DNA from: a virus
Reading direction: 5' to 3' (one strand)
IMG/VR virus record: IMGVR_UViG_3300035156_000072
Coordinates: 1 to 55,913 of that record
Length of the DNA stretch: 55,913 nucleotides
The translations under genes were made by a program, and so were the position numbers. The notes under the pieces are model-generated. The model saw only the letters and a program-made list of their open reading frames with translations, had not been told where the DNA came from and did no database searches. Positions 2,286-55,913 of the stretch are shown here, piece by piece (position 1 is the first letter of the stretch; every line of letters starts with the position of its first letter).

Positions 2286-4946
2286 ATGGCTGATATTGCT
2301 GAAATCGGCGCGCGCTTTGACAGTTCCGAATTGAAGGAAGGCGGCGCGGCTATTCGTGCGCTGGTGCCGCCCGCCAAGCAGGCAGAGGCGGCGGTCGATA
2401 AGCTGGAAACCGCCCTAGGGCAGTTGGCGGCGGGGGCGGCGAGTGCGGACACCAAGCTTGATCAGGTCGCCGCGACTGCCGGGGCCATGCCGGGGCAACT
2501 AGGAAGCGCCGCAGCGGGCGCACGGTCGCTTGGTGGCGCTCTAGGCAACATCAGCAGCGGAGGCACCGCAGAGCGCGGCGTGCGCGGCCTAGGTTCAGCC
2601 ATTGAGGCGGCGGGCAAGGCGTCCAAGCTGACGACCGCCGACATGCTAAATTTAGGGAGGCAGGGCGCGGATGTGGGCGTGACGCTCGCAATGGGCATGA
2701 ACCCTTTTATGGTTGCCATACAACAAGGCCCGCAAATCCTTGACGCCTTGCAGGTTGCAGCCATTCGCACGCAATCAACGGTTGGTGGTGTATTCAAACA
2801 GTTGCTTGCAACGGTCATGCCTTTGATTGTTTCGGTTGGTTTGCTTGTTGCAGCACTAGGGTTGGTTGCAGCCGGTTTTGCGCTGTGGTCCGTGGGTGAA
2901 AAATCAGCACTAGGTTATGAGAAGGCGGTTAGCGGTGTAGGACGTGCAGCGGGCATTACCGCCACACAACTGCGCACACTGACAATCGCGGGTGCGGAAC
3001 AGGGCAACATCAGCATCAAGGCGGCGCAAGAACAAGCGACGGCTTACCTTGCAACAGGTCGCATTGGTGGTGAAGTAATTAGCGGGCTGCTCGCTATCGG
3101 TAAGGATTACGCGTCCTTTGTCGGTAAAGACATGACGGCGGCGACCAAAGAGCTTGCAACGGCATTCGCTGACCCGACAAAGGCGGCGGTTGACCTAACG
3201 CGCCAATTCGGTCTGTTGAACCAAGAGCAAATAAAACAAATCAAATCAGCCATGCAGGCGGGTGACCGTCTAGGCGCACAACGAATTCTGCTAGACGCCC
3301 TGACCGTTGCGGCCAAGGGTCATTCGTCACAGGTCGGTGAAATCACGAACGCATGGGACGCTGTAGGTCGCGCAATCAGTAATGCAATCACCAAGCTTGG
3401 TGAATTTATGTACATGACCGAAAGCGAGAAGCTGCAACGTGATATTAACTTTCGGTCAAGTGTAGAGCGCACGGGCGGCCCGCGCGGGCCGGGACAAACG
3501 CGCCTGTACAATGAAGCGGGCGCGCGAGCATCGGGCGTACAAAGTGCCCGCGCGGTACGTGAAGCCGCAGCGGCGGAACGTGCACGTGTTGCCGCTGCAA
3601 ACATGGCCGCACAGGACCGAGTGGATAACGCCGCAACGCGTTCGCGTTCTAGCGGCGGTAAAACAAGCGGTGAAAAGTTTTCAGACATTGTTGATGGTAG
3701 CAAGCGCGACGCTGCGAGCGTACAAGCACAAATCGACGGTATCAACAAAACTACGGCTGCGGCGGCTTTGCTGACCAATCAGCAAAGGTTGCTAAATGAA
3801 GCCGCGTCCAAAGGTCTAACGCTTACGCCGGTGCAAACATCGCAACTGATGGCGCTCGCCGGTACGTTGACGGATTTGCAAGAGAAGCTGCGCAACTTGG
3901 AAGGTTTCAAAGAAATCAGCGAGGGTGCAGCAAAGCAGTTGACCACAATAACCGACATGACTGCTGAAATCGGGTTGACCGGTGAAGCGCTTTACAGATA
4001 CCGCGCTGAAATGGCGCTGTTGAATGAAGCGACCGCGAAACATATAGAGTTGGACGCAACGCAACGCGCGTCGCTGATAGCGACCGCCGCTGAAATCGGT
4101 AAGGCGACGGCGGAAGCGGAACGAATGAAGTTCGTTTACGATGCGGTTGGTCGCAGCATGGAAACGACCACGGGTCTTAAAGAGCAACTGTCATACATCG
4201 GTCTGAACGCCGACGAGGTAATCAGGCTGCGCAATGAAAATGTGTTGCTTGCCGCAGCACGTGCGCAGAACATCAACCTTACGCCCGACGACATAGCGGC
4301 GCTAAAGCAGGTTGCGGGTGAACAATCCAATGTAGAGATTGCAATTCGTCGCACCACGGAAGCACTCGACTTTGCCAAGTCCGCAACGCGTGGGTTCATT
4401 GGTGATCTGGCGAGCGGTCTAAAGCAAGGTGAAAGCCTGTGGCGCACGTTCGGTAACGCCGTGGTCAACGTGCTAAACAAAGTCTTGGACAAGCTGCTTG
4501 ATGCAGCGGTTGACGGTCTGTTTTCGGGTGGCAAGGGTAAAGGCGGCGGCGGGTTCCTTTCGACTATCTTTAAGGCTGCAATGTCGGGTTTGACCGGCGG
4601 CGGAAAGGTCACAGCGGCGGCAAAGGGCGAGGTTCTAGGCAGACCCACGATGATCGCACACGCCGCCGGGGCGACCTTGGCAGGCGAGGCGGGCAAGGAA
4701 GCTGTCGTACCGCTACAGCGCGGCCCTGACGGCTCGCTAGGCGTCCAAATGTACGGTGGCGGCGCTGGTGGCGGCGGTGTGAGCGTTCACGCCCCTATCA
4801 ACGTGTACCAAACGTTTGAAGGCGTCCTTAGCGGTGCCGATGTGCAGAACATCGCCAAGGGCGCTGCGCAGGTGGCTAAAGACGAAATGAAGCGCGAGGT
4901 TGTTCCGCTCCTCTCGCAATACCAACGCGACGGGGCAATTGTCTAA
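2286..4946 (+). CDS. tail tape measure protein
   Basis: 886 aa, Ala/Gly/coiled-coil rich, with a central hydrophobic segment and Gly-rich C-terminal stretches. Canonical position after the G/GT chaperones. Confidence 0.9.
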   Translation: MADIAEIGARFDSSELKEGGAAIRALVPPAKQAEAAVDKLETALGQLAAGAASADTKLDQVAATAGAMPGQLGSAAAGARSLGGALGNISSGGTAERGVRGLGSAIEAAGKASKLTTADMLNLGRQGADVGVTLAMGMNPFMVAIQQGPQILDALQVAAIRTQSTVGGVFKQLLATVMPLIVSVGLLVAALGLVAAGFALWSVGEKSALGYEKAVSGVGRAAGITATQLRTLTIAGAEQGNISIKAAQEQATAYLATGRIGGEVISGLLAIGKDYASFVGKDMTAATKELATAFADPTKAAVDLTRQFGLLNQEQIKQIKSAMQAGDRLGAQRILLDALTVAAKGHSSQVGEITNAWDAVGRAISNAITKLGEFMYMTESEKLQRDINFRSSVERTGGPRGPGQTRLYNEAGARASGVQSARAVREAAAAERARVAAANMAAQDRVDNAATRSRSSGGKTSGEKFSDIVDGSKRDAASVQAQIDGINKTTAAAALLTNQQRLLNEAASKGLTLTPVQTSQLMALAGTLTDLQEKLRNLEGFKEISEGAAKQLTTITDMTAEIGLTGEALYRYRAEMALLNEATAKHIELDATQRASLIATAAEIGKATAEAERMKFVYDAVGRSMETTTGLKEQLSYIGLNADEVIRLRNENVLLAAARAQNINLTPDDIAALKQVAGEQSNVEIAIRRTTEALDFAKSATRGFIGDLASGLKQGESLWRTFGNAVVNVLNKVLDKLLDAAVDGLFSGGKGKGGGGFLSTIFKAAMSGLTGGGKVTAAAKGEVLGRPTMIAHAAGATLAGEAGKEAVVPLQRGPDGSLGVQMYGGGAGGGGVSVHAPINVYQTFEGVLSGADVQNIAKGAAQVAKDEMKREVVPLLSQYQRDGAIV

Positions 4947-12344: not shown

Positions 12345-12737
12345 ATGCCGCCGCGTAAGACACCCGACATGTTACCGCACCTGAATTTCAACGGTGAAGA
12401 AATACCGCGCGATGATCCGCGCCTTGACGCAACCGTACTTGTGTTGTCGCAAATTCGCGACAGTCTGATTTCATTGTCAACGACCGTTACAGACGTTCGC
12501 GACCGTGTGATCAAAATGGAAACACAGAACGCCTTGGGGCAGTTGCAGGAATTCAAAGCGGAGTTCGAAAAGTACAAGAGCGACCGCGAGAAACTCAAAG
12601 AAACTGCATTCGACCGCATCAGCAAGCTTGAGCTACAGAACGCGCAATGGCGCGGCACATTCTTACCGCTCACAATCCTAGGCACAGGCATCATGGCCGC
12701 AGTCGTTGCGTTCGTTATGGAAGCGGTGTTGAAATGA
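12345..12737 (+). CDS. membrane-anchored coiled-coil protein (lysis-cassette accessory, function unknown)
   Basis: 130 aa with a coiled-coil centre and one C-terminal TM helix (FLPLTILGTGIMAAVVAFVMEAVL). Confidence 0.5.
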   Translation: MPPRKTPDMLPHLNFNGEEIPRDDPRLDATVLVLSQIRDSLISLSTTVTDVRDRVIKMETQNALGQLQEFKAEFEKYKSDREKLKETAFDRISKLELQNAQWRGTFLPLTILGTGIMAAVVAFVMEAVLK

Positions 12738-13965: not shown

Positions 13966-14050
13966 CGGTCTTAATCCCTAAAGCGCGTGACCGGTGCGGC
14001 CCGCTGTGACACCCGTGTACGACCACATGTAACAGGTGTCAAGCAATAAT
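13963..14050 (-). promoter_or_regulatory. promoter-leader cassette (TTGACA variant, type-B leader)
   Basis: Minus strand reads ATTATTGCTTGACAC-N16-TACACG-GGGTGTCACAGCGGGCCGCACCGGTCACGCGCTTTAGGGATTAAGACCG-ATG. The leader is shared with 24686..24775. The DNA polymerase stop codon lies inside the -35 element. Confidence 0.55.
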
Positions 14051-22410: not shown

Positions 22411-22889
22411 CACATAAGCTATACGCAGGCATTGGCGCACGTGCGACGCCACCGGACGTGTTGCAGCGCATGCAGGGTATCGGGCTGATGCTCGCAATGA
22501 GCGGGTGGAAGCTGCGCAGCGGCGGGGCGCACGGTGCCGATTTAGCGTTTGAGGTCGGGTCGTCATCGGCGGGTGTGAAGCCTGAAATTTTTGTGGCGCT
22601 CAACGCCTCGCGCAACCCGGCGTGGTTCAACCATGCTAGCAAATATCACCCGAAATGGGATAGCCTGTCGCGAGGGGCGCAACAGTTGCACGCGCGCAAT
22701 TCGGCAATCGTCCTAGGCGCTGACCTGCAAACCCCTGTGCGGTTCATTGTCTGTTGGACGCCGGGCGGGGCTGTGACCGGCGGCACCGGTCAAGCGCTGC
22801 GCATCGCCGCTGACTACAGCATACCGGTGTTTAACCTCGCCACGGATGGCGCAGAGTTAGACATGTGGGCTAAGACGGCGCAGCTATGA
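22407..22889 (+). CDS. DprA/Smf-like Rossmann (SLOG-type) protein
   Basis: ATGA overlap with the upstream gene. Contains AGIGARATP...LRSGGAHGADLAFE and ...CWTPGGAVTGGTGQALRIA, as in short DprA-like phage/plasmid proteins. Confidence 0.5.
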   Translation: MTHKLYAGIGARATPPDVLQRMQGIGLMLAMSGWKLRSGGAHGADLAFEVGSSSAGVKPEIFVALNASRNPAWFNHASKYHPKWDSLSRGAQQLHARNSAIVLGADLQTPVRFIVCWTPGGAVTGGTGQALRIAADYSIPVFNLATDGAELDMWAKTAQL

Positions 22890-23647
22890 TGCAGGCCTGC
22901 ATCATCGGCAATCAAGCGATGTGGTTAGGTGACTGCCTAGACATGATGCGCCACATACCCGCCGGTTCGGTTGATATGGTACTCTGTGATCTGCCTTACG
23001 GCACAACCGCTTGCGCATGGGATCAAGTTATACCGTTTGAACCGCTATGGCGCGAGTATTGGCGCGTGTGTAAGCCTAACGCGGCGGTTGTGTTGACCGC
23101 CTCGCAACCGTTCACGTCGGCGCTGGTAATGTCGCAGCCGGAAGCGTTTAAGGTTGAGTGGATTTGGCGCAAAAATGCGGGATCAAATTTTGCAGCCGTC
23201 AAATTCGTTCCAATGAAAGAACATGAAAGTATTTGCGTATTTGGTAAAGGTCGGACGGTGTATAATCCCATCATGCAGCAAAGAGCCGAAAGCGGTTTTG
23301 CAAGACAGAAAACACCCGTCAAATCCAATACTAAAGCCGGTCAAACAAATGACGTTTATGGTGTTGGTAAATCAGTTTCTAAAATGATTGGGACAGAACG
23401 TGTGCCATCATCGGTGCAAGATTTCAAACGTGAACGCGGTCTGCACCCAACACAAAAGCCGGTCGCGCTCTTTGAGTACCTGATTAAGACGTACACCAAC
23501 CCCGGCGAATTGGTCTTAGATAATTGCAGCGGGTCAGGTACAACGGCTGTCGCAGCGCAAGCGACCGGTCGCCGGTCGATATGTATTGAACGTGACCCCG
23601 GCTATTATTACCAGAGCGTAGGGCGCATGTTAGGGGCTGTGCAATGA
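22886..23647 (+). CDS. DNA methyltransferase (N6-adenine/N4-cytosine, beta class)
   Basis: Motif IV is CDLPYG near the N-terminus. Motif I region reads HPTQKPVALFEYLIKTYTNPGELVLDNCSGSGTT near the C-terminus. Confidence 0.85.
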   Translation: MMQACIIGNQAMWLGDCLDMMRHIPAGSVDMVLCDLPYGTTACAWDQVIPFEPLWREYWRVCKPNAAVVLTASQPFTSALVMSQPEAFKVEWIWRKNAGSNFAAVKFVPMKEHESICVFGKGRTVYNPIMQQRAESGFARQKTPVKSNTKAGQTNDVYGVGKSVSKMIGTERVPSSVQDFKRERGLHPTQKPVALFEYLIKTYTNPGELVLDNCSGSGTTAVAAQATGRRSICIERDPGYYYQSVGRMLGAVQ

Positions 23648-24344: not shown

Positions 24345-24688
24345 TCGGCGGCTGCGAACCCGCCATGGTCTGCGATGACTTGTGCAATGATGCTCACCGG
24401 CACCCAACCATAAACCGTTTCGGTTGGTGCGCTGGCGTCTTCGACATAGGGCATAAACGCCTCGACCCGTTCGCTTGGGAAACCCAACTCAACCGCATCA
24501 TACGGACCATTTGAATTGCGCGGCGAACAATAATGAAAAGCGCTCGCCTGCATTGAAAATGACAAACCACCCTGCGTTTTGATTGGTGGTACTTGCTCCA
24601 AGTGTTCTGCCAAAATCGGGTTGTCTGAACGGCGCTTGTTTGCGTCAAGTCGGTTCAACAGTTCGGCTTCAATTTCTTGAACGGTCAT
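24341..24688 (-). CDS. hypothetical protein (115 aa)
   Basis: The start is taken at internal ATG 24688 (MTVQEIEAELL...), which abuts the conserved leader and SD (TTTTGGAGCGCGTACTC-ATG). Confidence 0.55.
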   Translation of the reverse strand: MTVQEIEAELLNRLDANKRRSDNPILAEHLEQVPPIKTQGGLSFSMQASAFHYCSPRNSNGPYDAVELGFPSERVEAFMPYVEDASAPTETVYGWVPVSIIAQVIADHGGFAAAD

Positions 24689-24775
24689 GAGTACGCGCTC
24701 CAAAAGCGTGACCGGTGCGGCCCGCTGTGACACCCTTAAATCACGGCGCAACGGTTGGTGCAAGAGTTATTTTGC
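24686..24775 (-). promoter_or_regulatory. promoter-leader cassette (type-B leader)
   Basis: Minus strand reads AAAATAACTCTTGCAC-CAACCGTTGCGCCGTGA-TTTAAG-GGTGTCACAGCGGGCCGCACCGGTCACGC...ATG. Confidence 0.55.
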
Positions 24776-26078: not shown

Positions 26079-26357
26079 TCAGTGTTCCTCTGTTAGTCTG
26101 TCAAGCAATGCCGCGCGCCATGCTGGTACGTCGGCTTCCATTGTGCTGTATGTTTCGCAGACGGTTAATTCACCGTTACGAACGAACGTGAACGCGAGAG
26201 TGCGCCCGTTCTGTGTGATGCTCACAAGCGCCGCCCGGTCACGGTGCATCATCTGCACCTGTTCAAGCGATTGGCGCGCATCGGCTATGTGCTTATCAGC
26301 TTCGCGCAACGATACCTCTGCGGCTTGAGCGCGTTTGCGCCAATCTGTGCCGAACAT
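26079..26357 (-). CDS. hypothetical protein (92 aa)
   Basis: ORF in the operon, with 1-nt overlap to the upstream gene end. Confidence 0.55.
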   Translation of the reverse strand: MFGTDWRKRAQAAEVSLREADKHIADARQSLEQVQMMHRDRAALVSITQNGRTLAFTFVRNGELTVCETYSTMEADVPAWRAALLDRLTEEH

Positions 26358-26968
26358 CAGACGGATACCGGGAGCTTAAACAAAGCGTTCAGTTGCGCAG
26401 TCGGAAGCGCTGGAAGTTGCGGTTTAGGCGCGGTTTCACTCGGAACGAACGGCGCAATTTCAGGCCATGCGGCTAACAGTTTCTCGACTGTGAAAAACGT
26501 GTCAAGCGTTGCGCTCAATTGCTGGTGCGCATCGGTGATAGCGCTATTCAACGCGTCCGCAGCGTGCAGGAATTCTTGTGCGTCGGAGCCAATAGACGTG
26601 CGCACGTTGTATGCCTCAACACATTGATTGTGTTTGTCATATGGAAACCGCCTGTAAACCGCCTCGCCGCTTCCAAGGATCAAACGCAGTCGATAATGCG
26701 GCGCGTTGCCGTGGCGACTGAACGAACCGTTAAAGGTGAAGCGGTGCGCACGGTCACCAATCTCAACGTAAATGTCGTCATCGGTCGGAAGCATCCCTGT
26801 ACGCAGTTTCTCCATAGTCTCACGTTCGATACGCTGGAAAACATCGCAATAGATGCGGTCAGCAAGTATGATCTGCCTGTCGCGCATCGCCCAACAATCC
26901 GACAGGAACCGATGTGTAATAGTAGCGTCAGCAATCTTTGCGCGCGTGTCGTTTATCAATCGGGTCAT
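26357..26968 (-). CDS. hypothetical protein (203 aa)
   Basis: The start is taken at ATG 26968 (MTRLINDT...), preceded by CAGGGATACGAC. ATG 26995 is an alternative. Confidence 0.55.
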   Translation of the reverse strand: MTRLINDTRAKIADATITHRFLSDCWAMRDRQIILADRIYCDVFQRIERETMEKLRTGMLPTDDDIYVEIGDRAHRFTFNGSFSRHGNAPHYRLRLILGSGEAVYRRFPYDKHNQCVEAYNVRTSIGSDAQEFLHAADALNSAITDAHQQLSATLDTFFTVEKLLAAWPEIAPFVPSETAPKPQLPALPTAQLNALFKLPVSV

Positions 26969-27036
26969 GTCGTATCCCTGTGTAAGTCGGTGCAAGGGTT
27001 AGGCCGGTGCGTAACAGGCTGTCAAGCACTATTTGG
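26969..27036 (-). promoter_or_regulatory. promoter (TTGACA variant of the cassette family)
   Basis: Minus strand reads AAATAGTGCTTGACAGCCTGTTAC... It shares TGCTTGACA-CCTGTTAC with the 13963..14050 element. Confidence 0.45.
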
Positions 27037-27073: not shown

Positions 27074-27259
27074 ATGCCGTTACCCATGTCGGGGAAAACA
27101 CTTACGATCACCGGGCTTGCCCTATATATGGGGTGGAGCAAGCGCAGCACCTACAGAATGTTGAATGACGGGCGTTTTTCAGTCCCGCCCATTCCCGGCA
27201 TGTCGCCCCGGCGTTGGAACGTCGAGGATGTGGACGCGTGGCGGGCGGTGCATCAGTGA
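27074..27259 (+). CDS. small HTH DNA-binding protein (AlpA/excisionase/MerR-like fold)
   Basis: 61 aa. LTITGLALYMGWSKRSTYRMLNDGRF...RRWNVEDVDAW fits the pattern. The RBS is TAAGG. Confidence 0.5.
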   Translation: MPLPMSGKTLTITGLALYMGWSKRSTYRMLNDGRFSVPPIPGMSPRRWNVEDVDAWRAVHQ

Positions 27260-27720
27260 ACAATCGTTGCAAGCTGTATAGACATTTCGCAGCCGATGAC
27301 ACGTTGCTGTATGTAGGTATTTCGCTCACTATACTACAGCGCACTATATCGCATCGTGGCGGGGCCGCGTGGTATGATCAAATAGTCAAGATTACCATAG
27401 AAACCTATGATACGCGTGAAGCTGCTTTTACAGCGGAAACACTCGCTATACAGAACGAACGCCCGTTATATAATATTGATAAAACACCACGCAGACGTTT
27501 TGGCGTTCGCAAGTGTCCAGACCATTTGAAAAATATTACATACGGTAGGCAGGACTTGGCGGGCATCTTGGGGTGCACTTGCGAAACGATGTTGCGTTGG
27601 TCAAAACAGTGGGCGAATTTTCCGCAACCCATGCAAGGTGTTTGGCCCGATAGGTGGGATAAAACCAAAGTCGATGATTACTTGTCATCGATACACTTTC
27701 CGGGTTTCACGCAGTCATGA
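27256..27720 (+). CDS. GIY-YIG-like nuclease domain protein with C-terminal HTH-like region
   Basis: The GTG start overlaps the upstream TGA. LYRHFAADDTLLYVGIS...R...H...EAAFTAETLAIQNERPLYNI fits the GIY-YIG pattern. The region is visibly lower in G+C. Confidence 0.45.
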   Translation: MNNRCKLYRHFAADDTLLYVGISLTILQRTISHRGGAAWYDQIVKITIETYDTREAAFTAETLAIQNERPLYNIDKTPRRRFGVRKCPDHLKNITYGRQDLAGILGCTCETMLRWSKQWANFPQPMQGVWPDRWDKTKVDDYLSSIHFPGFTQS

Positions 27721-30107: not shown

Positions 30108-30289
30108 GCGACCGAACCGCCCGCCGCTTTCCAAGCGTCGTAAGCGTCGGCTTGAGCGTCTTGCGCGGCGTCGTAGTTCGCTTGCATTTCTGCCTTTTGC
30201 GAAGCCGGGGCGTTCATAAGGTCCGTCCAAGCGCGACCGGCGGCTTGTTGAGTGCGGATGGCGGCGGCTTCCAGTTGAGCGAGATTCAT
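30104..30289 (-). CDS. hypothetical protein (61 aa, Ala/Gln-rich helical)
   Basis: The ATG abuts type-A cassette copy 1. Confidence 0.55.
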   Translation of the reverse strand: MNLAQLEAAAIRTQQAAGRAWTDLMNAPASQKAEMQANYDAAQDAQADAYDAWKAAGGSVA

Positions 30290-30373
30290 GGTCTTAATCC
30301 CTAAAACGCGTCAGCGGTGTGCTGCGCTGAAACTGTTGTCGCATGGTGCAACGGTCGCCGCAAGAGTTATTTT
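30287..30373 (-). promoter_or_regulatory. promoter-leader cassette, type A copy 1 (87 nt, identical to 32954..33040)
   Basis: Minus strand reads AAAATAACTCTTGCGG-CGACCGTTGCACC...TTTCAGCGCAGCACACCGCTGACGCGTTTTAGGGATTAAGACC-ATG. Confidence 0.6.
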
Positions 30374-30561: not shown

Positions 30562-31749
30562 TTATGGGTTAACTTCAAACTCAACGACTTCAGCATAATT
30601 AACCGCCGCCGTGCTGATGAATTGGTAATATCGGAAAGGGGTCGCGTTCGGGCTGGAACAAGCAAGAACCTTGCGTTCCAGCGTCGAAAACCCGTAGCCG
30701 ACGCGCTCGTCTACGACAGTCCATGACACAGCGTCATTAGAACCCTCGACGCGCCACCCTTGCACGAAAGAGCCGCTTGTGTTTGAGGTAATCGCGTAGT
30801 TAGAGAGAACAAAAGCATTCGCAGCGCCGAAATCGCGGCGCAATATCCAACCGACTGCTGTTGAAGGCGGTAACCAGCGTGTCGCTGTTGAACCATCAAA
30901 TGCGCGGTATGCTTCAAAACCCGCGCCAGCCGTGCCGTCTGAATAGGCAACACTAGGTGCAGGCGTCGTGTTCGATGTCATGTTATTAGACAGCGGACCC
31001 GCGTTAGCGGTGTTCGTGCTAGGGTATGCGCGACCTGCGCCCCAGATAATGCGGACGCCGGAGCCGCCGCCGACGCCGCCGTTGCCCCTGCCGCCGCCGC
31101 CGTAAGTCTTCCCAGAACCACCCGAACCGGGGCCGCCGCTTGACCCGCCACCGCCCGCGCCGCCGCTTGACCCTTGGCCGAGAAGCCCGACGCCGCCCCC
31201 GTCGCCTCCAAAATAACCACCACCACCGCCACCGCCACCGGCTCCAGCGGTGCCATTGCCGTCTGTTTGGTCTGTGCCGCCCGCGCCGCCCCCGCCGGTA
31301 TAGCCGCCCGCGCCGCCCCCGCCTTGCGGCTGACTTGACACTGATGTTCCGCCTTGACCCCCCACGCCGCCTGTTGAACCCGAAAAGGTTCCGCCGTTAC
31401 CGCCCACTGAGCCGGAACCAGCACCACCGTTTCCTGCGGTGAGGAGGGCCAACGCCCCGCGCTTTATGCGCGTCAATGCTCCGCTCTCGTCAAAAACGAT
31501 TGTGAGAGTTTCACCCGGCGTTACAGGGATCGAAGCCGCGTAGGCTAACGCGCCACCACCGCCACCGCCGTATGCCCCGCCATCACCCCCACGACCTACG
31601 GCCACGGCGCTGATATTGGTCACGCCAGCGGGGACAACCCACGATGTGTTTGTGGTGAAGGTCTGTTGCCCGACCGCAGTAGCCACCGCCGCAGCGATGC
31701 TATTGCGCAGGTTACCAAGCGCAACACCAATGCCAAAATTGGCGGGCAT
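30562..31749 (-). CDS. glycine-rich fibre-like protein with C-terminal F5/8 type C (discoidin)-like domain
   Basis: The start is taken at ATG 31749 (MPANFG...), 1 nt after the upstream stop. The N-terminal WVVPAGVTNISAVAVGRGGDGG resembles a glycine-rich-domain motif and long G-rich tracts follow. The C-terminal FEAYRAFDGSTATRW...WRVEGSNDAVSWTVV is discoidin-like. Confidence 0.6.
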   Translation of the reverse strand: MPANFGIGVALGNLRNSIAAAVATAVGQQTFTTNTSWVVPAGVTNISAVAVGRGGDGGAYGGGGGGALAYAASIPVTPGETLTIVFDESGALTRIKRGALALLTAGNGGAGSGSVGGNGGTFSGSTGGVGGQGGTSVSSQPQGGGGAGGYTGGGGAGGTDQTDGNGTAGAGGGGGGGGYFGGDGGGVGLLGQGSSGGAGGGGSSGGPGSGGSGKTYGGGGRGNGGVGGGSGVRIIWGAGRAYPSTNTANAGPLSNNMTSNTTPAPSVAYSDGTAGAGFEAYRAFDGSTATRWLPPSTAVGWILRRDFGAANAFVLSNYAITSNTSGSFVQGWRVEGSNDAVSWTVVDERVGYGFSTLERKVLACSSPNATPFRYYQFISTAAVNYAEVVEFEVNP

Positions 31750-31750
31750 A

Positions 31751-32002
31751 TCAGTAGAAACCGACGATGTTTGCACAGCCGGTCAGGCCGGTCACGTTCA
31801 CGCGCTTGGCGTTCACAGAGAGGGTTTCACCGTTGGCAATGTTGGTGAACGTCGCCTGTGATCCGTCCGGGGCGACGATGACGCATGAGCCGCCGGTGCC
31901 GAACCGCAGGGCGCGCGGAAAGTTGCCCGACGTGCTTTTGGCGATGTTGTTGTTGTCGTCAGGCGTTACAGCGACGAAACCGGAGGCGGTGTTGTCAGAC
32001 AT
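31751..32002 (-). CDS. small beta-rich protein (83 aa), possible spike-base partner of the glycine-rich protein
   Basis: PRALRFGTGGSCVIVAPDGSQATFTNIANGETLSVNAKRVNVTGLTGCANIVGFY resembles small proteins found next to GTA or phage spike fibres. This is from memory and weak. Confidence 0.5.
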   Translation of the reverse strand: MSDNTASGFVAVTPDDNNNIAKSTSGNFPRALRFGTGGSCVIVAPDGSQATFTNIANGETLSVNAKRVNVTGLTGCANIVGFY

Positions 32003-32039
32003 GGCGCGGGCGTCCCTTGGATATGGAACGCCCTAGCTA

Positions 32040-32222
32040 TCATGTGACTGGCTGCGCCGCTAGCACCGGTTCGCATTGGACGCCGTGGCCTTGCCCCATG
32101 GCCCATTGAACGTGGTCTGAAAGCCATTTGCGGGCGTCCGACCGGCGCAGGTTGCACACCCGCTCCGATACGACAGGTGCGCCCGGCTGCGGCGTGGCGT
32201 AGGTGGTTACGCGGGTAATCAT
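32040..32222 (-). CDS. hypothetical protein (60 aa)
   Basis: The start is taken at internal ATG 32222 (MITRVTTYATPQ...), 1 nt after the upstream stop. Confidence 0.4.
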   Translation of the reverse strand: MITRVTTYATPQPGAPVVSERVCNLRRSDARKWLSDHVQWAMGQGHGVQCEPVLAAQPVT

Positions 32223-32223
32223 G

Positions 32224-32703
32224 TTACACAGGACTTTCAATGTCACCGCGAATACGGTCAAACGCTTCGCATTTATCATCGTCTGACAAATCGTCATCGT
32301 CATCAATTTCGTTTTCGTATTCATCACAAGCGGCTTCAACGCTATCCGCCCATTCCTCGCATTGGTCTATGCGTTCTTGCAACAGTTCGCCGCTAGCCGC
32401 ATATTGAAGCTGTTCCGGCATGTTATCTAGCTTCTCTTGTTGCTCTTGGCCGAGTGACCGAATGTCGTCGGCAAGGGCGCGAAGCGTATCAATGTCGGGC
32501 GCTTCCTGTACTGCGTCGTCAAGGTCATAAGCCTGACCTAGAAAATCCGACAATGTAAGTTGCGAACGTTTGGGGTAGGTTTTGGACCTTTTGACTATTC
32601 CGCCGCGCTGCATCTTAATGGCCCATGTGTAATACATGTCACCTTTTTCAATGCCTTGATTGGGATAGTCTTTGCGGGCTTTGCGATGGTGTACGCGGGG
32701 CAT
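32224..32703 (-). CDS. hypothetical protein (159 aa) with basic N-terminus and very acidic C-terminus
   Basis: The start is taken at internal ATG 32703 (MPRVHHRKARKDYPNQGIEKGDMYY...), preceded by AGAGAGG. The C-terminus reads EYENEIDDDDDLSDDD. Confidence 0.55.
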   Translation of the reverse strand: MPRVHHRKARKDYPNQGIEKGDMYYTWAIKMQRGGIVKRSKTYPKRSQLTLSDFLGQAYDLDDAVQEAPDIDTLRALADDIRSLGQEQQEKLDNMPEQLQYAASGELLQERIDQCEEWADSVEAACDEYENEIDDDDDLSDDDKCEAFDRIRGDIESPV

Positions 32704-32761
32704 GGTGTGCGCCTCTCTAGGGCTGGTGGCGCGGCTGTTACACCGCGCCGGGGTTGTGGGG

Positions 32762-32956
32762 TTAGCCAACCATGTTGACGCTGCGGACGATGTACCCTTC
32801 GCGCTTGGCGACTGCGGCGGCTTGGTTGCGATTGCGGCCGTAAACGGTGATGATTGCTTCACTACCCTTATGTGCCAATTCCTGCGGCATATTCACATAC
32901 ACGTCGTAGGCGTGATTTGCGGAAGGAACGTCGTTGAGTTGGATTTGAAGGCGCAT
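32762..32956 (-). CDS. hypothetical protein (64 aa)
   Basis: The ATG abuts type-A cassette copy 2. Confidence 0.55.
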   Translation of the reverse strand: MRLQIQLNDVPSANHAYDVYVNMPQELAHKGSEAIITVYGRNRNQAAAVAKREGYIVRSVNMVG

Positions 32957-33040
32957 GGTCTTAATCCCTAAAACGCGTCAGCGGTGTGCTGCGCTGAAAC
33001 TGTTGTCGCATGGTGCAACGGTCGCCGCAAGAGTTATTTT
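32954..33040 (-). promoter_or_regulatory. promoter-leader cassette, type A copy 2 (87 nt, identical to 30287..30373)
   Basis: Exact 87/87 identity with copy 1 by direct comparison. It lies immediately downstream of the tmRNA terminator. Confidence 0.6.
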
Positions 33041-33053
33041 TATGCCGTGCAAT

Positions 33054-33090
33054 AAAAAGCCCCGCCGCCACGGTGTGTGGCGAGCGGGGC
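33054..33090 (-). terminator. intrinsic terminator of the tmRNA gene
   Basis: Minus strand reads CCCCGC-T-CGCCAC-acacc-GTGGCG-GCGGGG followed by CTTTTTATT. Confidence 0.8.
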
Positions 33091-33395
33091 TAGTGGCGGC
33101 GTTCTGTTCACAAGTGCCGCCCGTCTCGGACTTAGGCCGCTTGGGCGTAAGTCAGGGGGTAGTTATCGTTCAGTGTTATTCTGTGCGGATTGGTTACCGC
33201 GCCCGGTGTATGTCGAAACCTGTCGGCCCCAAGGTTCGCAGCACGCCCGACCGGGCTTCTAGGGCGCTATCCCTAAATTCAATGCGGATGGTCGTTACCG
33301 TCGATGCAGATAACTTTAGCCGCGTGCTGCGAATGGTGGAGCCGCCGCGAATTGAACGCGGGTCCATACATAAGCCGGGCGACCCTAACCCGGCG
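33054..33395 (-). ncRNA. ssrA: two-piece (circularly permuted) tmRNA gene
   Basis: Order on the minus strand: T-arm, acceptor 3' strand and CCA (ends at 33334); a 103-nt spacer closed by a 12-bp stem; then GGGGCCGACAGGTTTCGAC... from 33230. GGGGCCG pairs with CGGCTCC, giving G3:U70. An inter-piece helix forms (CATACA/TGTATG and CCGGGCG/CGCCCGG). The tag ORF reads NDNYPLTYAQAA-stop. The 5' end is approximate. Confidence 0.85.
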
Positions 33396-33846
33396 GTATG
33401 TCAGGGTCAAGCGTCATCATCAGGCGATACCAAGCGTTGCGGTCGTTGTGCAGCCATGCGGCGAGCATGGCGAGTTCCCTACGCGTCGGCGGGCGGTCAG
33501 CCTTGGTGTTGTTACACGGGATGCAGGCCAGCAATATATTAGCGTCATTGGTGCCGCCTAGAGCGCGCGGTACAACGTGTTCCTTGGTCACATACCGGTC
33601 GCGGTGAAACAAGGCGGCGCACATGTAGCAATGGCCGTTCTGGAACGTCCAAAGGTCGCGTATCATGCTGTTGGGTATCAAACCGGTGATGTGCGAGTGC
33701 GGGTGGTAATATCCCTTTTCTATGCGCTTTGCGTATTTGCGCCGTGTGGCGAGAGCATCAGCGACGGACCCGGCGCGTATGGTCGCCGCTTGCCTGCGTC
33801 GCAAGCGTGTCAGTTCGCGTATCTCTCGCCACGTTGGTTCTGTCAC
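33385..33846 (-). CDS. HNH endonuclease
   Basis: GHCYMCAALF...EHVVPRALGGTNDANILLACIPCNNTK is an HNH motif. The start is taken at a GTG overlapping the upstream TGA (GTGA); ATG 33903 is an alternative. The stop lies within the 5' part of the tmRNA gene. Confidence 0.8.
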   Translation of the reverse strand: MTEPTWREIRELTRLRRRQAATIRAGSVADALATRRKYAKRIEKGYYHPHSHITGLIPNSMIRDLWTFQNGHCYMCAALFHRDRYVTKEHVVPRALGGTNDANILLACIPCNNTKADRPPTRRELAMLAAWLHNDRNAWYRLMMTLDPDIPPG

Positions 33847-34187
33847 GTCAGAGGGCGACCGCTTGCCGCGCACGGGCCATAGTGACCAAATGAGCGGGTG
33901 CAATCACGATGCGCCGGGCAACACAGGGTGCGCGGTACATATTCGACCGCTTCGCGCGTATACTCGCGGTCAAGCCGCTGCGCGTTGTCCAACATGGCGC
34001 GGATGTTCGCACGCTGTGACCGGCGAACCGTCACGACCTGACCATTGGCAAGGCGCACCTGTATGCTGGCGATGCGACCGGCGGCGACGGCTTGACACCA
34101 TGGGCGCAATATCTGGTTGTCAACGCCAACGCTGCGCCACCTGTCGGACGGGTCATGTCGCCATGTGCGCGGGTGGTGGTAGCTCAT
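33843..34187 (-). CDS. hypothetical protein (114 aa)
   Basis: ORF in a coupled operon, with ATGA overlap to the exonuclease gene. Confidence 0.55.
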   Translation of the reverse strand: MSYHHPRTWRHDPSDRWRSVGVDNQILRPWCQAVAAGRIASIQVRLANGQVVTVRRSQRANIRAMLDNAQRLDREYTREAVEYVPRTLCCPAHRDCTRSFGHYGPCAASGRPLT

Positions 34188-35137
34188 GACGCGAAGGCGG
34201 AAACGATGCGGTCAAGCACGTTGATTTGGTGTTGCCAATAGCCGGGGTCATCATGATCCACCCCGGCGGGTTCCGCGTTGTCGCGCATTGCGTTTAACGC
34301 CGCCCGAAAATTATCCGCGTGCGTTATTACATCCTGCATCGCTTCGACTTGTTGGGTAAGCCCTGCACTGTCGGCGGTGATTTTTACGCTAACCTCGCCA
34401 ATGCGCCGCGCGTCTCGCCATCCTCTGACGATGCCGTGAGCGTGGCATACGGCGCGGGCTTGGGTCACGGCGTCATCTAGGGCGTTGTGGAAGGTGCCGC
34501 CGGTCTTGAACGCCTCTAGGCAGGTTGCGGGGTCCATACCCGCCATGTCGAAGGCGGTTCGGGTGTCGCGCGGGCTGCGGTAGTGCCACGGGACGATTGC
34601 GGGGCGCGTGTCGATAATGCACTGACCGGTTTGGTCGAAAAGCATTTTGTAAGCGTGGCGCAACATTGGTTCATCCATGTTTTCACCATGGCACCATATG
34701 CGCAATCGACCGCTCATGCCGTGGCAAAGGTTGTCTAACCATTCCGCAAACCGGCGCAGACCTATGGCGAGGTCAACGCGGTCAGTCTCAAGCTGTGCGG
34801 CTGCGTCGGCGCGGTCAGGGTGTGACCACCATTCGACAGTTTGCGGGTCGCGGGTCAATGAGTATTTGTAGCAGAGTTGCGACGCCGGGTCCGCATGCGG
34901 GTAATTGGCGTCATGTGACCAACTGTCGGTCGTGTCGTCATAGTGCAACGCGTCGTCATACGGCACGCTTGGGTTCTCTACATTCTGGTAGAACAAACCG
35001 TGTGCGCTTTCGCCCTCGCGATCCCATACACGCCCGGTCATAGGGTCAAATACCACCGCGCCAATGCTGCGAATGTCGCGGCCCGGATCGGTGCCCCATG
35101 TTTCGAGGTCAAGCATGATGTGTACGGGGTCAGTCAT
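34184..35137 (-). CDS. DEDD-type 3'-5' exonuclease (DnaQ/RNase T-like)
   Basis: The start is taken at internal ATG 35137 (ATGA overlap). Exo I is IMLDLETWG and Exo III is FHNALDDAVTQA. Confidence 0.7.
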   Translation of the reverse strand: MTDPVHIMLDLETWGTDPGRDIRSIGAVVFDPMTGRVWDREGESAHGLFYQNVENPSVPYDDALHYDDTTDSWSHDANYPHADPASQLCYKYSLTRDPQTVEWWSHPDRADAAAQLETDRVDLAIGLRRFAEWLDNLCHGMSGRLRIWCHGENMDEPMLRHAYKMLFDQTGQCIIDTRPAIVPWHYRSPRDTRTAFDMAGMDPATCLEAFKTGGTFHNALDDAVTQARAVCHAHGIVRGWRDARRIGEVSVKITADSAGLTQQVEAMQDVITHADNFRAALNAMRDNAEPAGVDHDDPGYWQHQINVLDRIVSAFAS

Positions 35138-35415
35138 AAGTGTATCCCTCTGCGAAAAGCGGTGACGCTGCCCCAAGCGACATTTGAAAACGTGTGACCG
35201 GCGACCTTTGAGCCGCCGTGAAACATGACGGTGTATTGATCACCGTGTGTCATGCCGTGGGGTGGTTTTCCATAGGGCCAATCACAGCGTCGGCAATCGC
35301 TACGGAATATCCAACCATCGCGGTCAGGGTGCGGCGGTTGCGGGCGCGAGTTGCGGACCATTTCTAGGCCCTGCTTGCACAGCGCCTCTAGTTCCTTAGC
35401 CTGTGCCGGTGTCAT
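35134..35415 (-). CDS. hypothetical protein (93 aa)
   Basis: The start is taken at ATG 35415 (MTPAQAKELE...), which overlaps the upstream TGA. Confidence 0.5.
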   Translation of the reverse strand: MTPAQAKELEALCKQGLEMVRNSRPQPPHPDRDGWIFRSDCRRCDWPYGKPPHGMTHGDQYTVMFHGGSKVAGHTFSNVAWGSVTAFRRGIHL

Positions 35416-35642
35416 AGCGTGCGGCTCCAATACCAAAGCGCCAAGCGGAGGCGGGCGCGGTTAATCCAACCGGGGCGACGACTTGTGCCGTTGCGACCGG
35501 TGATGCTGTACGTGTCACGGTTGACCCATACATGCAGGGCAGGAAAATACACGGTGTCATCATCCGCATCGTGCGAGCCGGGCGCACCCTTGCTGATGTG
35601 CACGATGATTTGCGACACGGTGGGTGTGCGGGTGTGTGTCAT
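35412..35642 (-). CDS. hypothetical protein (76 aa)
   Basis: This is the C-terminal part of track ORF 35412..35780. The start is taken at ATG 35642 (MTHTRTPTVSQ...), which overlaps the upstream TGA. The longer version would overlap the upstream gene. Confidence 0.45.
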   Translation of the reverse strand: MTHTRTPTVSQIIVHISKGAPGSHDADDDTVYFPALHVWVNRDTYSITGRNGTSRRPGWINRARLRLALWYWSRTL

Positions 35643-36127
35643 ACGGTGCGCTTGTAGCTGAACGTGTAACCTTTGACAGACGGTACGCGACCGCGCAAGT
35701 GCTGCGATATCTGCGATTGTTTGATACCTAGCGCCTCTGCGGCGTGGGTCTGCGTTTCGTATGTCACGCCGTTGCTGCATGTGATGCTGCGACCGGCTGC
35801 GGCGTCATGCCCGTGCATGTTGCAAGGTGGTTTAGGTTCCTGCGCCATCATGTGCCGAAACGCCTCATTGCGGCAATCCAGCTTTTCGCCGGTCTGCACA
35901 ATCTTAAGGTAAATGTAAGAGCTTGGCTTGGTGATGCTGTGCCAATGCGTGTTGCGGTTCAGGTCCAATAGGAGCGTAACGTCACGCAGGGCGGCGGCGT
36001 TGATGTACACCAGCGTTGCGGCGTCCTTGTCGGGGTCATGTAGCCATACCTCATACACGCACCATTGCGCCGGGAGCTTGTGCGCGAGGTCCAAGATGGT
36101 GCAGGCGGTTTGGGGCGTGAGTGTCAT
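35639..36127 (-). CDS. putative DNA-binding protein (NUMOD1-like C-terminal HTH; possible degenerate GIY-YIG N-terminus)
   Basis: ITCSNGVTYETQTHAAEALGIKQSQISQHLRGRVPSVKGYTFSY resembles NUMOD1-type HTH modules. Confidence 0.45.
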   Translation of the reverse strand: MTLTPQTACTILDLAHKLPAQWCVYEVWLHDPDKDAATLVYINAAALRDVTLLLDLNRNTHWHSITKPSSYIYLKIVQTGEKLDCRNEAFRHMMAQEPKPPCNMHGHDAAAGRSITCSNGVTYETQTHAAEALGIKQSQISQHLRGRVPSVKGYTFSYKRTV

Positions 36128-38221: not shown

Positions 38222-38458
38222 TTATGCGGCACGCAGCACAGTGATTGTAGCACCTTTCCAGTAAGCGCCTTCGATGCGGATGAAACCCTTAGCGGCAAGT
38301 CCGCGCAACGCTGTGCTTTTGAAAATGCCAACCGACGCAGCGACCGCAGCCTGTGCAACGTTGGCGGTGTATTCGCTGGTGAGAACCTGCACCGCCTGTC
38401 CGACATACTGCGACAGAGTGATCATGGCGTCAGCTTGGTTGTCGGTCAGGTTTGTCAT
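38222..38458 (-). CDS. hypothetical protein (78 aa), possible winged-helix
   Basis: The ATG abuts type-A cassette copy 3. This is a monocistronic unit ending in a terminator. Confidence 0.55.
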   Translation of the reverse strand: MTNLTDNQADAMITLSQYVGQAVQVLTSEYTANVAQAAVAASVGIFKSTALRGLAAKGFIRIEGAYWKGATITVLRAA

Positions 38459-38542
38459 GGTCTTGATCCCTAAAGCGCGTCAGCGGTGTGCTGCGTTGAA
38501 ACCGTTGTCACACATGCAACGAACCGATGCAAGAGTTATTTT
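38456..38542 (-). promoter_or_regulatory. promoter-leader cassette, type A copy 3 (diverged)
   Basis: Same 87-nt length as copies 1 and 2, with about 14 substitutions. The stop codon of the upstream gene lies inside AAAATAA. Confidence 0.6.
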
Positions 38543-46616: not shown

Positions 46617-46706
46617 GGTGCGCCCTTTCAAGGCTGGTGCGGCGAGTGCCGCGTTGAACGTGTTAGCTGTATGTCACGCGCAACGAACCAGTGCAAGAGT
46701 TATTTT
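46614..46706 (-). promoter_or_regulatory. promoter-leader cassette (family member, distinct leader)
   Basis: Minus strand reads AAAATAACTCTTGCAC-TGGTTCGTTGCGCGTGA-CATACA... Confidence 0.55.
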
Positions 46707-47115: not shown

Positions 47116-47195
47116 TATCAGTTTCCGTGTAAAGCGCATAATTGCGCAATCACCACAATAGACCATTGCAAGAGTTGGTGCAAGAGTTATTTTTA
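47116..47195 (-). promoter_or_regulatory. promoter (cassette family; TTGCAC-N17-TATTGT)
   Basis: Minus strand reads AAAAATAACTCTTGCAC-CAACTCTTGCAATGGTC-TATTGT. It is divergent from the capsid gene. Confidence 0.55.
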
Positions 47196-55420: not shown

Positions 55421-55897
55421 TTGCAACAGGATTTTGACCACGTGGCTAAAGCACGGCTAGGCAGAAAATACCCGTCAACCTTTGCGGCTGACATTGAGGG
55501 TATCGCAGAGTTGACAGACCGTCGCTTGCTAGCAGTTGCGCGTGCCTCGTTTAGCGACGTGATCGATATTGCGCAGACACCGACCGCTAAGGGCGGGCGC
55601 ATGCGAGTTGACACAGGATACTTGCGCGCATCGGGTCAATTCTCGCTCAACGGCATGCCAACCGGCGGCGTCCGTGGCGCAGACAACGCCGTCAAATACC
55701 AATACGACGATGGCAACAAACCGCTTAACGTGACGCTACTAGACACCGCCAAAATCGGTGCGGTGTTTCACTTTGGGTGGACCGCCAATTACGCACGGTA
55801 TCGCGAGGTATTCGACGGGTTTCTAGAGGGCGCGTTGCAGCATTGGGGAACCATTGTGACGTACCACGTTGACCAAGCACGGGAGCGCATCAAATGA
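55421..55897 (+). CDS. HK97 gp10-like head-tail (neck) protein
   Basis: GGRMRVDTGYLRASG...FHFGWTANYARYRE matches the gp10-family pattern. It uses a TTG start. The stop overlaps the ATG of the tail terminator gene across the circular junction. Confidence 0.6.
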   Translation: MQQDFDHVAKARLGRKYPSTFAADIEGIAELTDRRLLAVARASFSDVIDIAQTPTAKGGRMRVDTGYLRASGQFSLNGMPTGGVRGADNAVKYQYDDGNKPLNVTLLDTAKIGAVFHFGWTANYARYREVFDGFLEGALQHWGTIVTYHVDQARERIK

Positions 55898-55913
55898 CCA
55901 TCGCGGATGATTT
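55787..55913. repeat. terminal direct repeat, copy 2 (identical to 1..127)
   Basis: Exact duplicate of the window start. Confidence 0.9.

Follow-up and report, generated by a model that had tools for sequence, protein, structure and literature searches.

Transfer-messenger RNA (tmRNA) rescues ribosomes that have stalled. Its circularly permuted form, in which the molecule is made in two pieces, is reportedly typified by the alphaproteobacterial (Caulobacter-type) version of Keiler, Shapiro and Williams (2000). Complete tmRNAs, the two-piece version included, are also known from lytic phages without SmpB (PMC9004378, PMC4131195, PMC12656738): a 2021 survey covering 18,146 phage genomes turned up 133 unique tmRNAs, 53 of them two-piece and 50 of these 53 marine or aquatic (PMC9004378), and a 2025 tmRNA database holds 79 unique phage sequences (PMC11915505). 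Here we describe a gene of this kind on the minus strand of a 55,913-nt viral DNA, positions 1 to 55,913 of the IMG/VR record IMGVR_UViG_3300035156_000072 (hereafter the window, meaning this whole stretch). Phage-encoded two-piece tmRNAs are thus already documented; what is new here is a structurally reduced copy in a Rigallicvirus-like lineage.

Three sets of phage systems offer a backdrop for this gene. The first comes from marine phages such as the OM43 phage Melnitz, which is lytic, has no integrase and encodes a two-piece tmRNA (PMC9004378). As in Melnitz, the pelagimyophages and the cyanophages, the window combines a complete permuted ssrA with the lack of an integrase and SmpB, and with an apparent location in an early transcription unit (PMC9004378). 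In contrast, the marine carriers are large T4-like myophages with ARAGORN-detectable genes, that of Melnitz being accompanied by a glutamine riboswitch (PMC9004378), whereas the window, at 55.8 kb, is of the siphophage type and is related to phages that infect soil rhizobia; no sequence similarity was found. The second set comprises the virulent siphophages of Bradyrhizobium elkanii reported in 2025, all of which carry a tmRNA (PMC12656738; GenBank PX020967-PX020982). Compared by description only, they share with the window the standing of phages of root-nodule alphaproteobacteria with a tmRNA and no recognised lysogeny genes (PMC12656738), and the tag ending of the window matches the Bradyrhizobium type; their genomes are ~62.9 kb, and the form of their tmRNA is not described in PMC12656738. 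Finally, mycobacteriophages and Bacillus phage G carry tmRNAs (PMC4131195); the one-piece tmRNAs of the Bxz1 group of mycobacteriophages resemble the present one in being phage-encoded with no phage SmpB, but they are not permuted, and the RNA of phage DS6A lacks the coding part (PMC4131195).

A comparison of the whole window with all Rfam families returned a single family match, to RF04321 (tmRNA_permuted) at 33390..33132 on the minus strand, which reaches 57.3 bits (gathering score 47; E = 1.4e-8) and spans the full length of the model (positions 1-213). A first-pass annotation, made from the letters alone, had proposed a permuted two-piece gene at this place, and each of its sequence statements is found where it had put it on the minus strand between 33400 and 33050. 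The order is indeed permuted, with the CCA (33336-33334) upstream of GGGGCCG (33230-33224) and the tag frame on the same strand; the parts are as follows.

33334..33390, minus strand: acceptor piece, ~57 nt if it starts at GGUUA (from the sequence read, the RF04321 alignment and a pairing table)
33390-33386, minus strand: P2c 5' strand GGUUA, pairing with UAACC at 33196-33192; absent from the first-pass annotation
33381-33375 with 33206-33200, minus strand: P2b, CGCCCGG with CCGGGCG, 7 bp
33370-33365 with 33212-33207, minus strand: P2a, UGUAUG with CAUACA, 6 bp
33361-33345, minus strand: T-arm, CCGCG (33361-33357), UUCAAUU, CGCGG (33349-33345), a 5-bp stem with a 7-nt loop
33344-33338, minus strand: acceptor 3' strand CGGCUCC, with the discriminator A at 33337 and the encoded CCA at 33336-33334
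33231..33333, minus strand: 103-nt intervening segment whose excision is predicted, with internal hairpins; alone it folds at -42.9 kcal/mol
33333-33322 with 33246-33235, minus strand: 12-bp intervening-segment stem that puts the CCA end beside the GGGG start; likewise absent from the first-pass annotation
33057..33230, minus strand: coding piece, ~170 nt, starting with GGGGCCG (33230-33224), the acceptor 5' strand
33223-33213, minus strand: D-loop analogue ACAGGUUUCGA, within the coding piece after the acceptor 5' strand
33132..33173, minus strand: tag frame, CUG (33173-33171), AAC GAU AAC UAC CCC CUG ACU UAC GCC CAA GCG GCC, UAA (33134-33132)
33095..33121, minus strand: 3' hairpin GGCGGC-ACUUGUGAACAGAAC-GCCGCC, with a loop conserved in related phages and bacterial alpha tmRNAs
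33053..33091, minus strand: intrinsic terminator at -29.9 kcal/mol, made up of a GC-rich stem of 14 bp (one bulge), a loop of 5 nt and U5

The sequence read and the pairing table bear out what had been claimed of the T-arm, the acceptor strand, the discriminator A, the CCA and the 103-nt spacing; of the pairing between GGGGCCG and CGGCUCC (7 of 7 pairs, the one G:U being at 3:70, the alanine identity element of the original claim); of the two-part inter-piece helix, both CAUACA:UGUAUG and CCGGGCG:CGCCCGG being able to pair; of the frame AAC GAU ... GCC UAA, which ends at 33132; and of the GC hairpin plus T5 at the end of the gene (~33091-33053). A simple terminator scan did not call this last element, probably on account of the bulge in its stem. 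Altogether, 42 of 42 base pairs are intact across the T stem, the acceptor stem, P2a, P2b, P2c and the intervening-segment stem. These helices reappear in an unconstrained fold of the 342-nt region (z = -5.4, with none of 100 shuffles as stable), and when the two pieces are co-folded, the acceptor stem, P2a and P2b form again. Hence, the RF04321 score, the fold z-score and the presence of permuted tmRNAs at the syntenic position in two related phages together confirm, far beyond chance, that the window carries a circularly permuted two-piece tmRNA gene.

The related phages were found through the primase. The window is a complete genome of ~55,786 bp (~55.8 kb), circular or terminally redundant, as indicated by a 127-nt exact repeat at its two ends (1-127 and 55787-55913) that looks like an assembly overlap. 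Judged by sequence, it is a Rigallicvirus-like siphophage genome: its 796-aa primase is 55% identical to that of vB_RglS_P106B and 51% to that of RHph_X2_24, Rhizobium phages of the genus Rigallicvirus, and its structural and replication genes are collinear with those of both phages at 35-65% amino-acid identity. Neither P106B nor X2_24 has a tmRNA. A query with a single primase returned no related viral loci, whereas an alignment of three primases succeeded and yielded 18 metagenomic and 30 IMG/VR loci with flanks, which were screened for tmRNAs by Rfam scans and by a regular expression for the permuted layout. The screen brought up the following genes.

12685..12373, minus strand, of FSSH01000322.1 (locus L147): tmRNA, 99.7 bits with the permuted model and 93.5 bits with the alpha model
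3446..3077, minus strand, of IMGVR_UViG_3300049847_000341 (locus L167): tmRNA, 86.9 bits with the permuted model and 103.9 bits with the alpha model

The primases of these two loci are 62% (L147) and 54% (L167) identical to that of the window. In both, the tmRNA is at most ~120 nt from the primase stop, and in L147 it lies just 3 nt past it. As in the window, it is convergent with the primase and downstream of exonuclease and NUMOD genes; to elaborate, the order in L167, namely primase, then tmRNA, exonuclease and NUMOD on the opposite strand, is identical in the window. Counting the loci that cover at least 0.7 kb past the primase together with the fully scanned X2_24 genome, the gene is present in 3 of 28 genomes, the window included, and is thus, in this phage group, a cassette that is optional but always at one locus. 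Among deposited phage genomes, the tmRNA genes of the two relatives have partial matches only in two Erythrobacter phages, vB_EliS-L02 and XM05 (OL955261.1 ~75761-76125; PV416404.1 ~149975-150062), where no feature is annotated; alpha-type phage tmRNAs appear to be under-annotated.

The comparison of the three phage genes was drawn from covariance-model alignments; a MAFFT alignment was scrambled in the middle of the gene. P2 consists of segments of 6, 7 and 5 bp, all of them Watson-Crick and up to 18 bp in all, a layout equal to the 5-7-6 of the alpha consensus. While the P2c sequences vary, their pairing is kept (GGUUA:UAACC, GAUCG:CGAUC and AAUCG:CGAUU in the three genes), and at acceptor pair 5:68 the window has C-G where L147 has G-C. 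The P2a of the window is perfect, whereas each relative has one mismatch there. Comparable stem-closed intervening segments occur in L147 and L167 (37 and 86 nt), and in all three genes they begin with UUG or UUC right after the CCA; the similarity between the segments of the window and L147, with 39 of 2000 shuffles reaching its score, is suggestive but is not taken as proof of common descent. The 3' hairpin reads GGGGC-ACCUUGGAACAGAAC-GCCCC in L167 and ACCuGGCAACAGAA in the alpha consensus, and the 3' domains of the window and L167 are homologous, none of 2000 shuffles reaching their score.

After the 3' strands of P2, the coding piece of the window runs through an 18-nt linker, the tag frame and the 3' hairpin to the terminator. 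The UAACA that precedes CUG fits the U(-5)A(-4) context of the resume codon (UAAaU|GCa in the alpha consensus, UAAAU|GUC in L147), and we infer from this match that the long frame is to be favoured over the alternative GAA CGA UAA. The resume codon would then probably be CUG and the predicted tag (A)LNDNYPLTYAQAA, or (A)NDNYPLTYAQAA were translation to resume at AAC; the tags predicted for L147 and L167 are (A)VTNDNYITEVRVAA and (A)DNDNQPVTALRIAA, and all three have the form NDN...AA. The frame is unbroken and has the NDN motif and AA-stop that also occur in both relatives and in at least 119 bacterial genes. The latter are true ssrA genes that we recovered by scanning 185,579 species genomes with the degenerate pattern NDN[Y/F]...AQAA-stop; all of them encode (A)NDN[Y/F]APVAQAA, and they belong to Bradyrhizobium, Pseudolabrys, Afipia, Nitrobacter, Rhodoplanes and allied Hyphomicrobiales. 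The tag of the window ends like those of this Bradyrhizobium-type AQAA group, which we regard as a weak hint as to the host; taken with the hosts of the cultured relatives, it suggests Bradyrhizobium, Xanthobacteraceae, Rhizobium and Sinorhizobium as candidates. In IMG/VR, a degenerate tag pattern had no match.

Set against the alphaproteobacterial tmRNA (RF01849), the gene shows a mixture of features. It shares the permuted order of acceptor piece, intervening segment and coding piece; the three-part P2; the NDN[Y/F] near the start of the tag and the AA-stop at its end; the U(-5)A(-4) before the resume codon; the 3' hairpin with an AACAGAA loop; and, with the versions of Bradyrhizobium, Pseudolabrys, Afipia and Nitrobacter, the AQAA ending. 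It differs in having a canonical tRNA-like domain and a resume codon other than GCN, and in lacking the region of the pseudoknot PK1 and one 3' hairpin of the alpha form. In this it also departs from L147 and L167, which are of the classic alpha type with a PK1 hairpin.

Taking these observations together, we propose that the window probably encodes a genuine and active phage two-piece tmRNA, which would have arisen by reduction from the alpha-type gene found at this locus in sister phages. The retention of 42 perfect structural pairs in a highly diverged sequence points to selection rather than to a dead relic. Briefly, we advance the following mechanism for its action. Read-through transcription would reach the gene as the final element of a leftward string of early or accessory genes that sets out from ~37.84-38.07 kb, the transcript passing through the exonuclease-fold and HNH genes and stopping at the terminator at ~33.06 kb. 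In the folded precursor, the 12-bp intervening stem would set the CCA end beside the GGGG start, such that host RNase P could cut 5' of G33230 and host tRNA 3'-end enzymes could trim to the CCA at 33334, thereby freeing the 103-nt segment. The products, an acceptor piece of ~57 nt and a coding piece of ~170 nt, would stay joined by the 7-bp acceptor stem and P2. Host AlaRS might then charge the RNA by way of G3:U70 and A73, and host SmpB and EF-Tu might bring it to ribosomes stalled on broken mRNAs. Translation would resume at CUG or AAC and add (A)(L)NDNYPLTYAQAA, upon which the ribosome would be released and the tagged protein passed on to host proteases of the ClpXP type. The likely benefit to the phage would be that ribosomes stay on hand as mRNAs are degraded or cleaved in the course of the infection.

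Several observations weigh against this proposal, the chief doubts arising from the lack of PK1, the lack of a promoter and a domain type unlike that of the presumed host clade. The first group of these observations concerns the detection of the gene. ARAGORN made no call, and local runs at -ps90, -ps80 and -ps70 made none either, so that the check suggested by the first-pass annotation misses the gene even at 70% thresholds. (At -ps60 ARAGORN does make a permuted call; it has a nonsense tag and is surrounded by spurious tRNAs, and was rejected.) The covariance-model check suggested alongside it had a divided outcome: RF04321 is significant, as given above, while RF01849 (alpha_tmRNA) reports nothing at its gathering score of 50 bits and lists nothing in E-value mode. 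The best lineage-specific model in that mode is instead RF01850 (beta_tmRNA), with a full-length but weak match of 29.2 bits against a gathering score of 84; the tag of the window is of the NDN type, as against the ANDE type of the beta consensus. Given the weak beta score and the lack of an alpha report, the gene belongs to the general permuted family and to none of the three classical subtypes. Thus, the alphaproteobacterial label originally attached to it holds for the tag and the 3' hairpin, and fails for the tRNA-like domain and at the level of the alpha model. The resume codon, whether CUG or AAC, is likewise not the GCN expected of that type.

The second group concerns architecture. The linker from P2c to the resume codon is 18 nt long in the window and 37 nt in both L147 and L167, and the distance from the 5' end of the coding piece to NDN is 60 nt, compared with 89 nt in L147 and 84-88 nt in bacteria (at least 102 genes); ~27 nt corresponding to PK1 are missing. 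The RF04321 alignment, too, leaves the PK1 hairpin of the model without a counterpart. Considering the short linker and the 60-nt distance, PK1 cannot be present in its usual form and seems to be absent, and the statement of the first-pass annotation that all parts are present was accordingly too strong. The PK1 pseudoknot is important for the tmRNA of Escherichia coli. A hairpin of 3-4 bp around UAACC, GCGG(UAACCAAU)CCGC, might substitute for it; in the co-fold, thermodynamics favours this local hairpin over P2c. Further, the tRNA-like domain of the window is canonical (GGUUUCGAC / ACAGGUUUCGAC, with the T-loop UUCAAUU), whereas L147, L167, the alpha consensus and 102 of 102 parsed bacterial genes among the matches listed have the alpha-type domain (GGAUCGAC; T-loop GGCRGUA). 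It thus differs from the domain of the presumed host clade.

The third group concerns expression and distribution. We found no convincing promoter of the tmRNA gene's own. A candidate, TTGACC-N17-TAGGGT in the 3' end of the HNH gene, was set aside: its transcript would start inside P2b, so that P2c and part of P2b would be lost. L147 and L167 have TTGACA/TTGACC promoter-like boxes of their own, seen by eye and not called by a simple sigma-70 scan, in the place where the window has the HNH gene. That open reading frame (ORF), which may have displaced the promoter of the tmRNA, ends within the tmRNA itself, its stop codon UAG (33387-33385) sitting within the P2c 5' strand GGUUA. Lastly, the tmRNA is found in exactly two relatives and is absent at the locus in 25 of 27.

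The same observations lend themselves to a different, in our view unlikely, explanation: that an ancestral alpha-type tmRNA lost its promoter to the HNH insertion, lost PK1 as well, and, being no longer active in trans-translation, persists solely as a transcribed 3' appendage and terminator of the string. The missing PK1 region and short linker, the lack of a convincing own promoter with an HNH stop codon within P2c, the failure of ARAGORN and the lineage-specific models, and the dispensability of the gene across the group would all follow from such decay. What such decay does not predict is the state of the remaining parts: every one of the 42 pairs is intact, while the relatives are the less perfect ones in P2a, and G3:U70, A73, CCA, the NDN motif and the AA-stop are all kept. 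Neutral drift that has left no shared 24-mer should have brought mismatches and stop or frame changes with it.

Less probable still, to our minds, is that the RNA modulates rather than rescues, i.e., that it is made and charged, or at any rate binds SmpB, but mainly competes with the host tmRNA, by titrating SmpB, as suggested for the DS6A RNA, or by swapping the host tag for a ...PLTYAQAA variant that alters the fate of the tagged proteins. The middle of the tag is unlike that of every one of the at least 119 bacterial AQAA-type tags (APVAQAA), no two of the three phage genes have the same tag, and the type of the tRNA-like domain is not that of the presumed host clade; moreover, phage DS6A makes an RNA with only the tRNA-like domain, and inhibition of tmRNA by such a molecule has been reported (PMC4131195, PMC11915505). 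A pure decoy, however, would not need the coding part, the resume context and the AA-stop, all of which are conserved, and the tag retains NDN at its N-terminus and AA at its C-terminus, the two parts conserved across the bacterial tags retrieved.

The idea that the segment is a host-derived fragment, an ssrA attP site or a chimeric assembly can be regarded as effectively refuted: temperate elements often do integrate into tmRNA genes and carry 3' fragments of them (PMC4383910), and P106B annotates an excisionase-like regulator with a homologue in the window at 27074-27259, but the gene is complete, down to the two halves of its tRNA-like domain, its tag frame and its terminator, no integrase was found, the relatives have a tmRNA at the same locus, phage-specific repeats lie on both sides, and the HNH stop codon inside the 5' helix interlocks the gene with the phage ORFs. 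The first-pass annotation had likewise argued against an attP remnant, and had named near-identity to a host ssrA, with read evidence of a chimeric assembly, among the things that would undo its claim. No such identity was found, the acceptor 24-mer (T-loop to CCA) having 0 exact matches in the 185,579 species genomes, the JGI metagenomes and IMG/VR. From this lack of matches and the interlocking with phage genes, we conclude that the gene was not captured recently and is no product of chimeric assembly.

Two further points of the first-pass annotation, the absence of an integrase and of SmpB, also stand. Pfam detected neither among the neighbours of the tmRNA and ten of the larger ORFs unmatched in the relatives; the remaining large ORFs match genes of these phages that carry no integrase annotation; and an SmpB probe, based on an approximate query sequence, gave only noise (best E = 1.3).

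Returning to the proposal of an active, reduced tmRNA, one may tentatively go further and envisage how it came about. In this scenario, which we offer as possible though rather doubtful, a captured alpha-type tmRNA was remodelled to a minimal form in one rhizobiophage-like lineage: the tRNA-like domain would have been switched to the canonical type, PK1 lost or compacted around P2c, and a non-alanine resume codon and a phage-specific tag middle acquired. If this were true and the gene active, a minimal two-piece tmRNA would exist in nature, an alphaproteobacterial SmpB could do without PK1 and the alpha-type domain, and phages would be tuning the tag sequence for their own ends. At any rate, the gene adds a soil-type, Rigallicvirus-like lineage to the carriers of two-piece tmRNAs, so far mostly marine or aquatic. 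It also illustrates that ARAGORN-based phage annotation can miss such genes, those of L147, L167 and the two Erythrobacter phages being unannotated as well. The trimmed architecture, with no PK1, a canonical domain and an alpha-like tag, provides a natural test of which elements trans-translation needs, and the diverging tags of the three phage copies provide a way to ask why phages carry a tmRNA at all.

As for the genomic neighbourhood, the tmRNA lies in a lineage-specific accessory region of small leftward genes at 30.1-40.5 kb. Its principal features, together with others of the same kinds elsewhere in the genome, are as follows.

33385..33903, minus strand: HNH endonuclease ORF, homing-endonuclease-like (Pfam HNH_5, 34.4 bits, E = 2e-8), directly upstream of the tmRNA
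34184-35176, minus strand: gene with an Rv2179c-like 3'-5' exoribonuclease fold (97 bits in Pfam), in one string with the tmRNA and 0.8 kb upstream of it
35639-36127, minus strand: I-HmuI NUMOD-like gene, homing-endonuclease-like
27214-27720, plus strand: weak GIY-YIG match, homing-endonuclease-like
30287-30373 and 32954-33040, minus strand: 87-nt repeats, 100% identical, resembling a promoter and 5' untranslated region
38456-38542 (full) and 13967-14006, 24688-24727, 46675-46706 and 47162-47193 (partial), minus strand: other copies of the same repeat family

The tightly packed ORFs of the leftward string come after a terminator-like hairpin at 38189-38163, and the string probably has its start in a promoter-like, AT-rich cluster at ~37.84-38.07 kb; upstream of the HNH gene come a 114-aa ORF, the Rv2179c-like gene and the I-HmuI NUMOD-like gene. 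No homologue of the HNH ORF occurs in the related loci, the ORF being specific to the window genome. Homologues of the Rv2179c-like gene occur at the same accessory position in many relatives and, in P106B, next to the DNA polymerase; a part for it in RNA 3'-end trimming would be pure speculation. The full repeat copies end in ...UUUAGGGAUUAAGACC-AUG, the AUG being the start codon of a small ORF. Between the two identical 87-nt repeats lies a 2.67-kb block that parts the primase from the tmRNA and encodes a Gly-rich F5/8 type C protein (30562-31776) and small ORFs, an arrangement that suggests a recent cassette insertion or a duplication by recombination between the repeats. Both this block and the HNH gene are additions specific to the window genome.

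In the gene-level searches, megablast of 32000-35000 against phages returned nothing, and blastn of the gene returned nothing against plasmids and, against phages, only a 41-nt match to the T-arm in a Bordetella phage. The exact 19-mer GGGGCCGACAGGTTTCGAC has matches in 22 IMG/VR contigs; these are nearly all unrelated one-piece tmRNAs, so that the 19-mer is merely a conserved 5' end and was discarded as a probe for relatives. A permuted layout that includes it is found at ~1-420 of the 164.6-kb IMGVR_UViG_3300022752_000019 (...TCCACCA, ~150 nt, then GGGGCCGACAGGTTTCGAC), with the predicted tag ANNTNAFAPVALAA; this virus is unrelated to the phage group of the window. Finally, the window encodes a protein with the nucleotide-modification-associated domain 5 (Nmad5; 26357-26995, minus strand) and an N6/N4 DNA methylase (22886-23647, plus strand), which hint that the phage modifies its own DNA.

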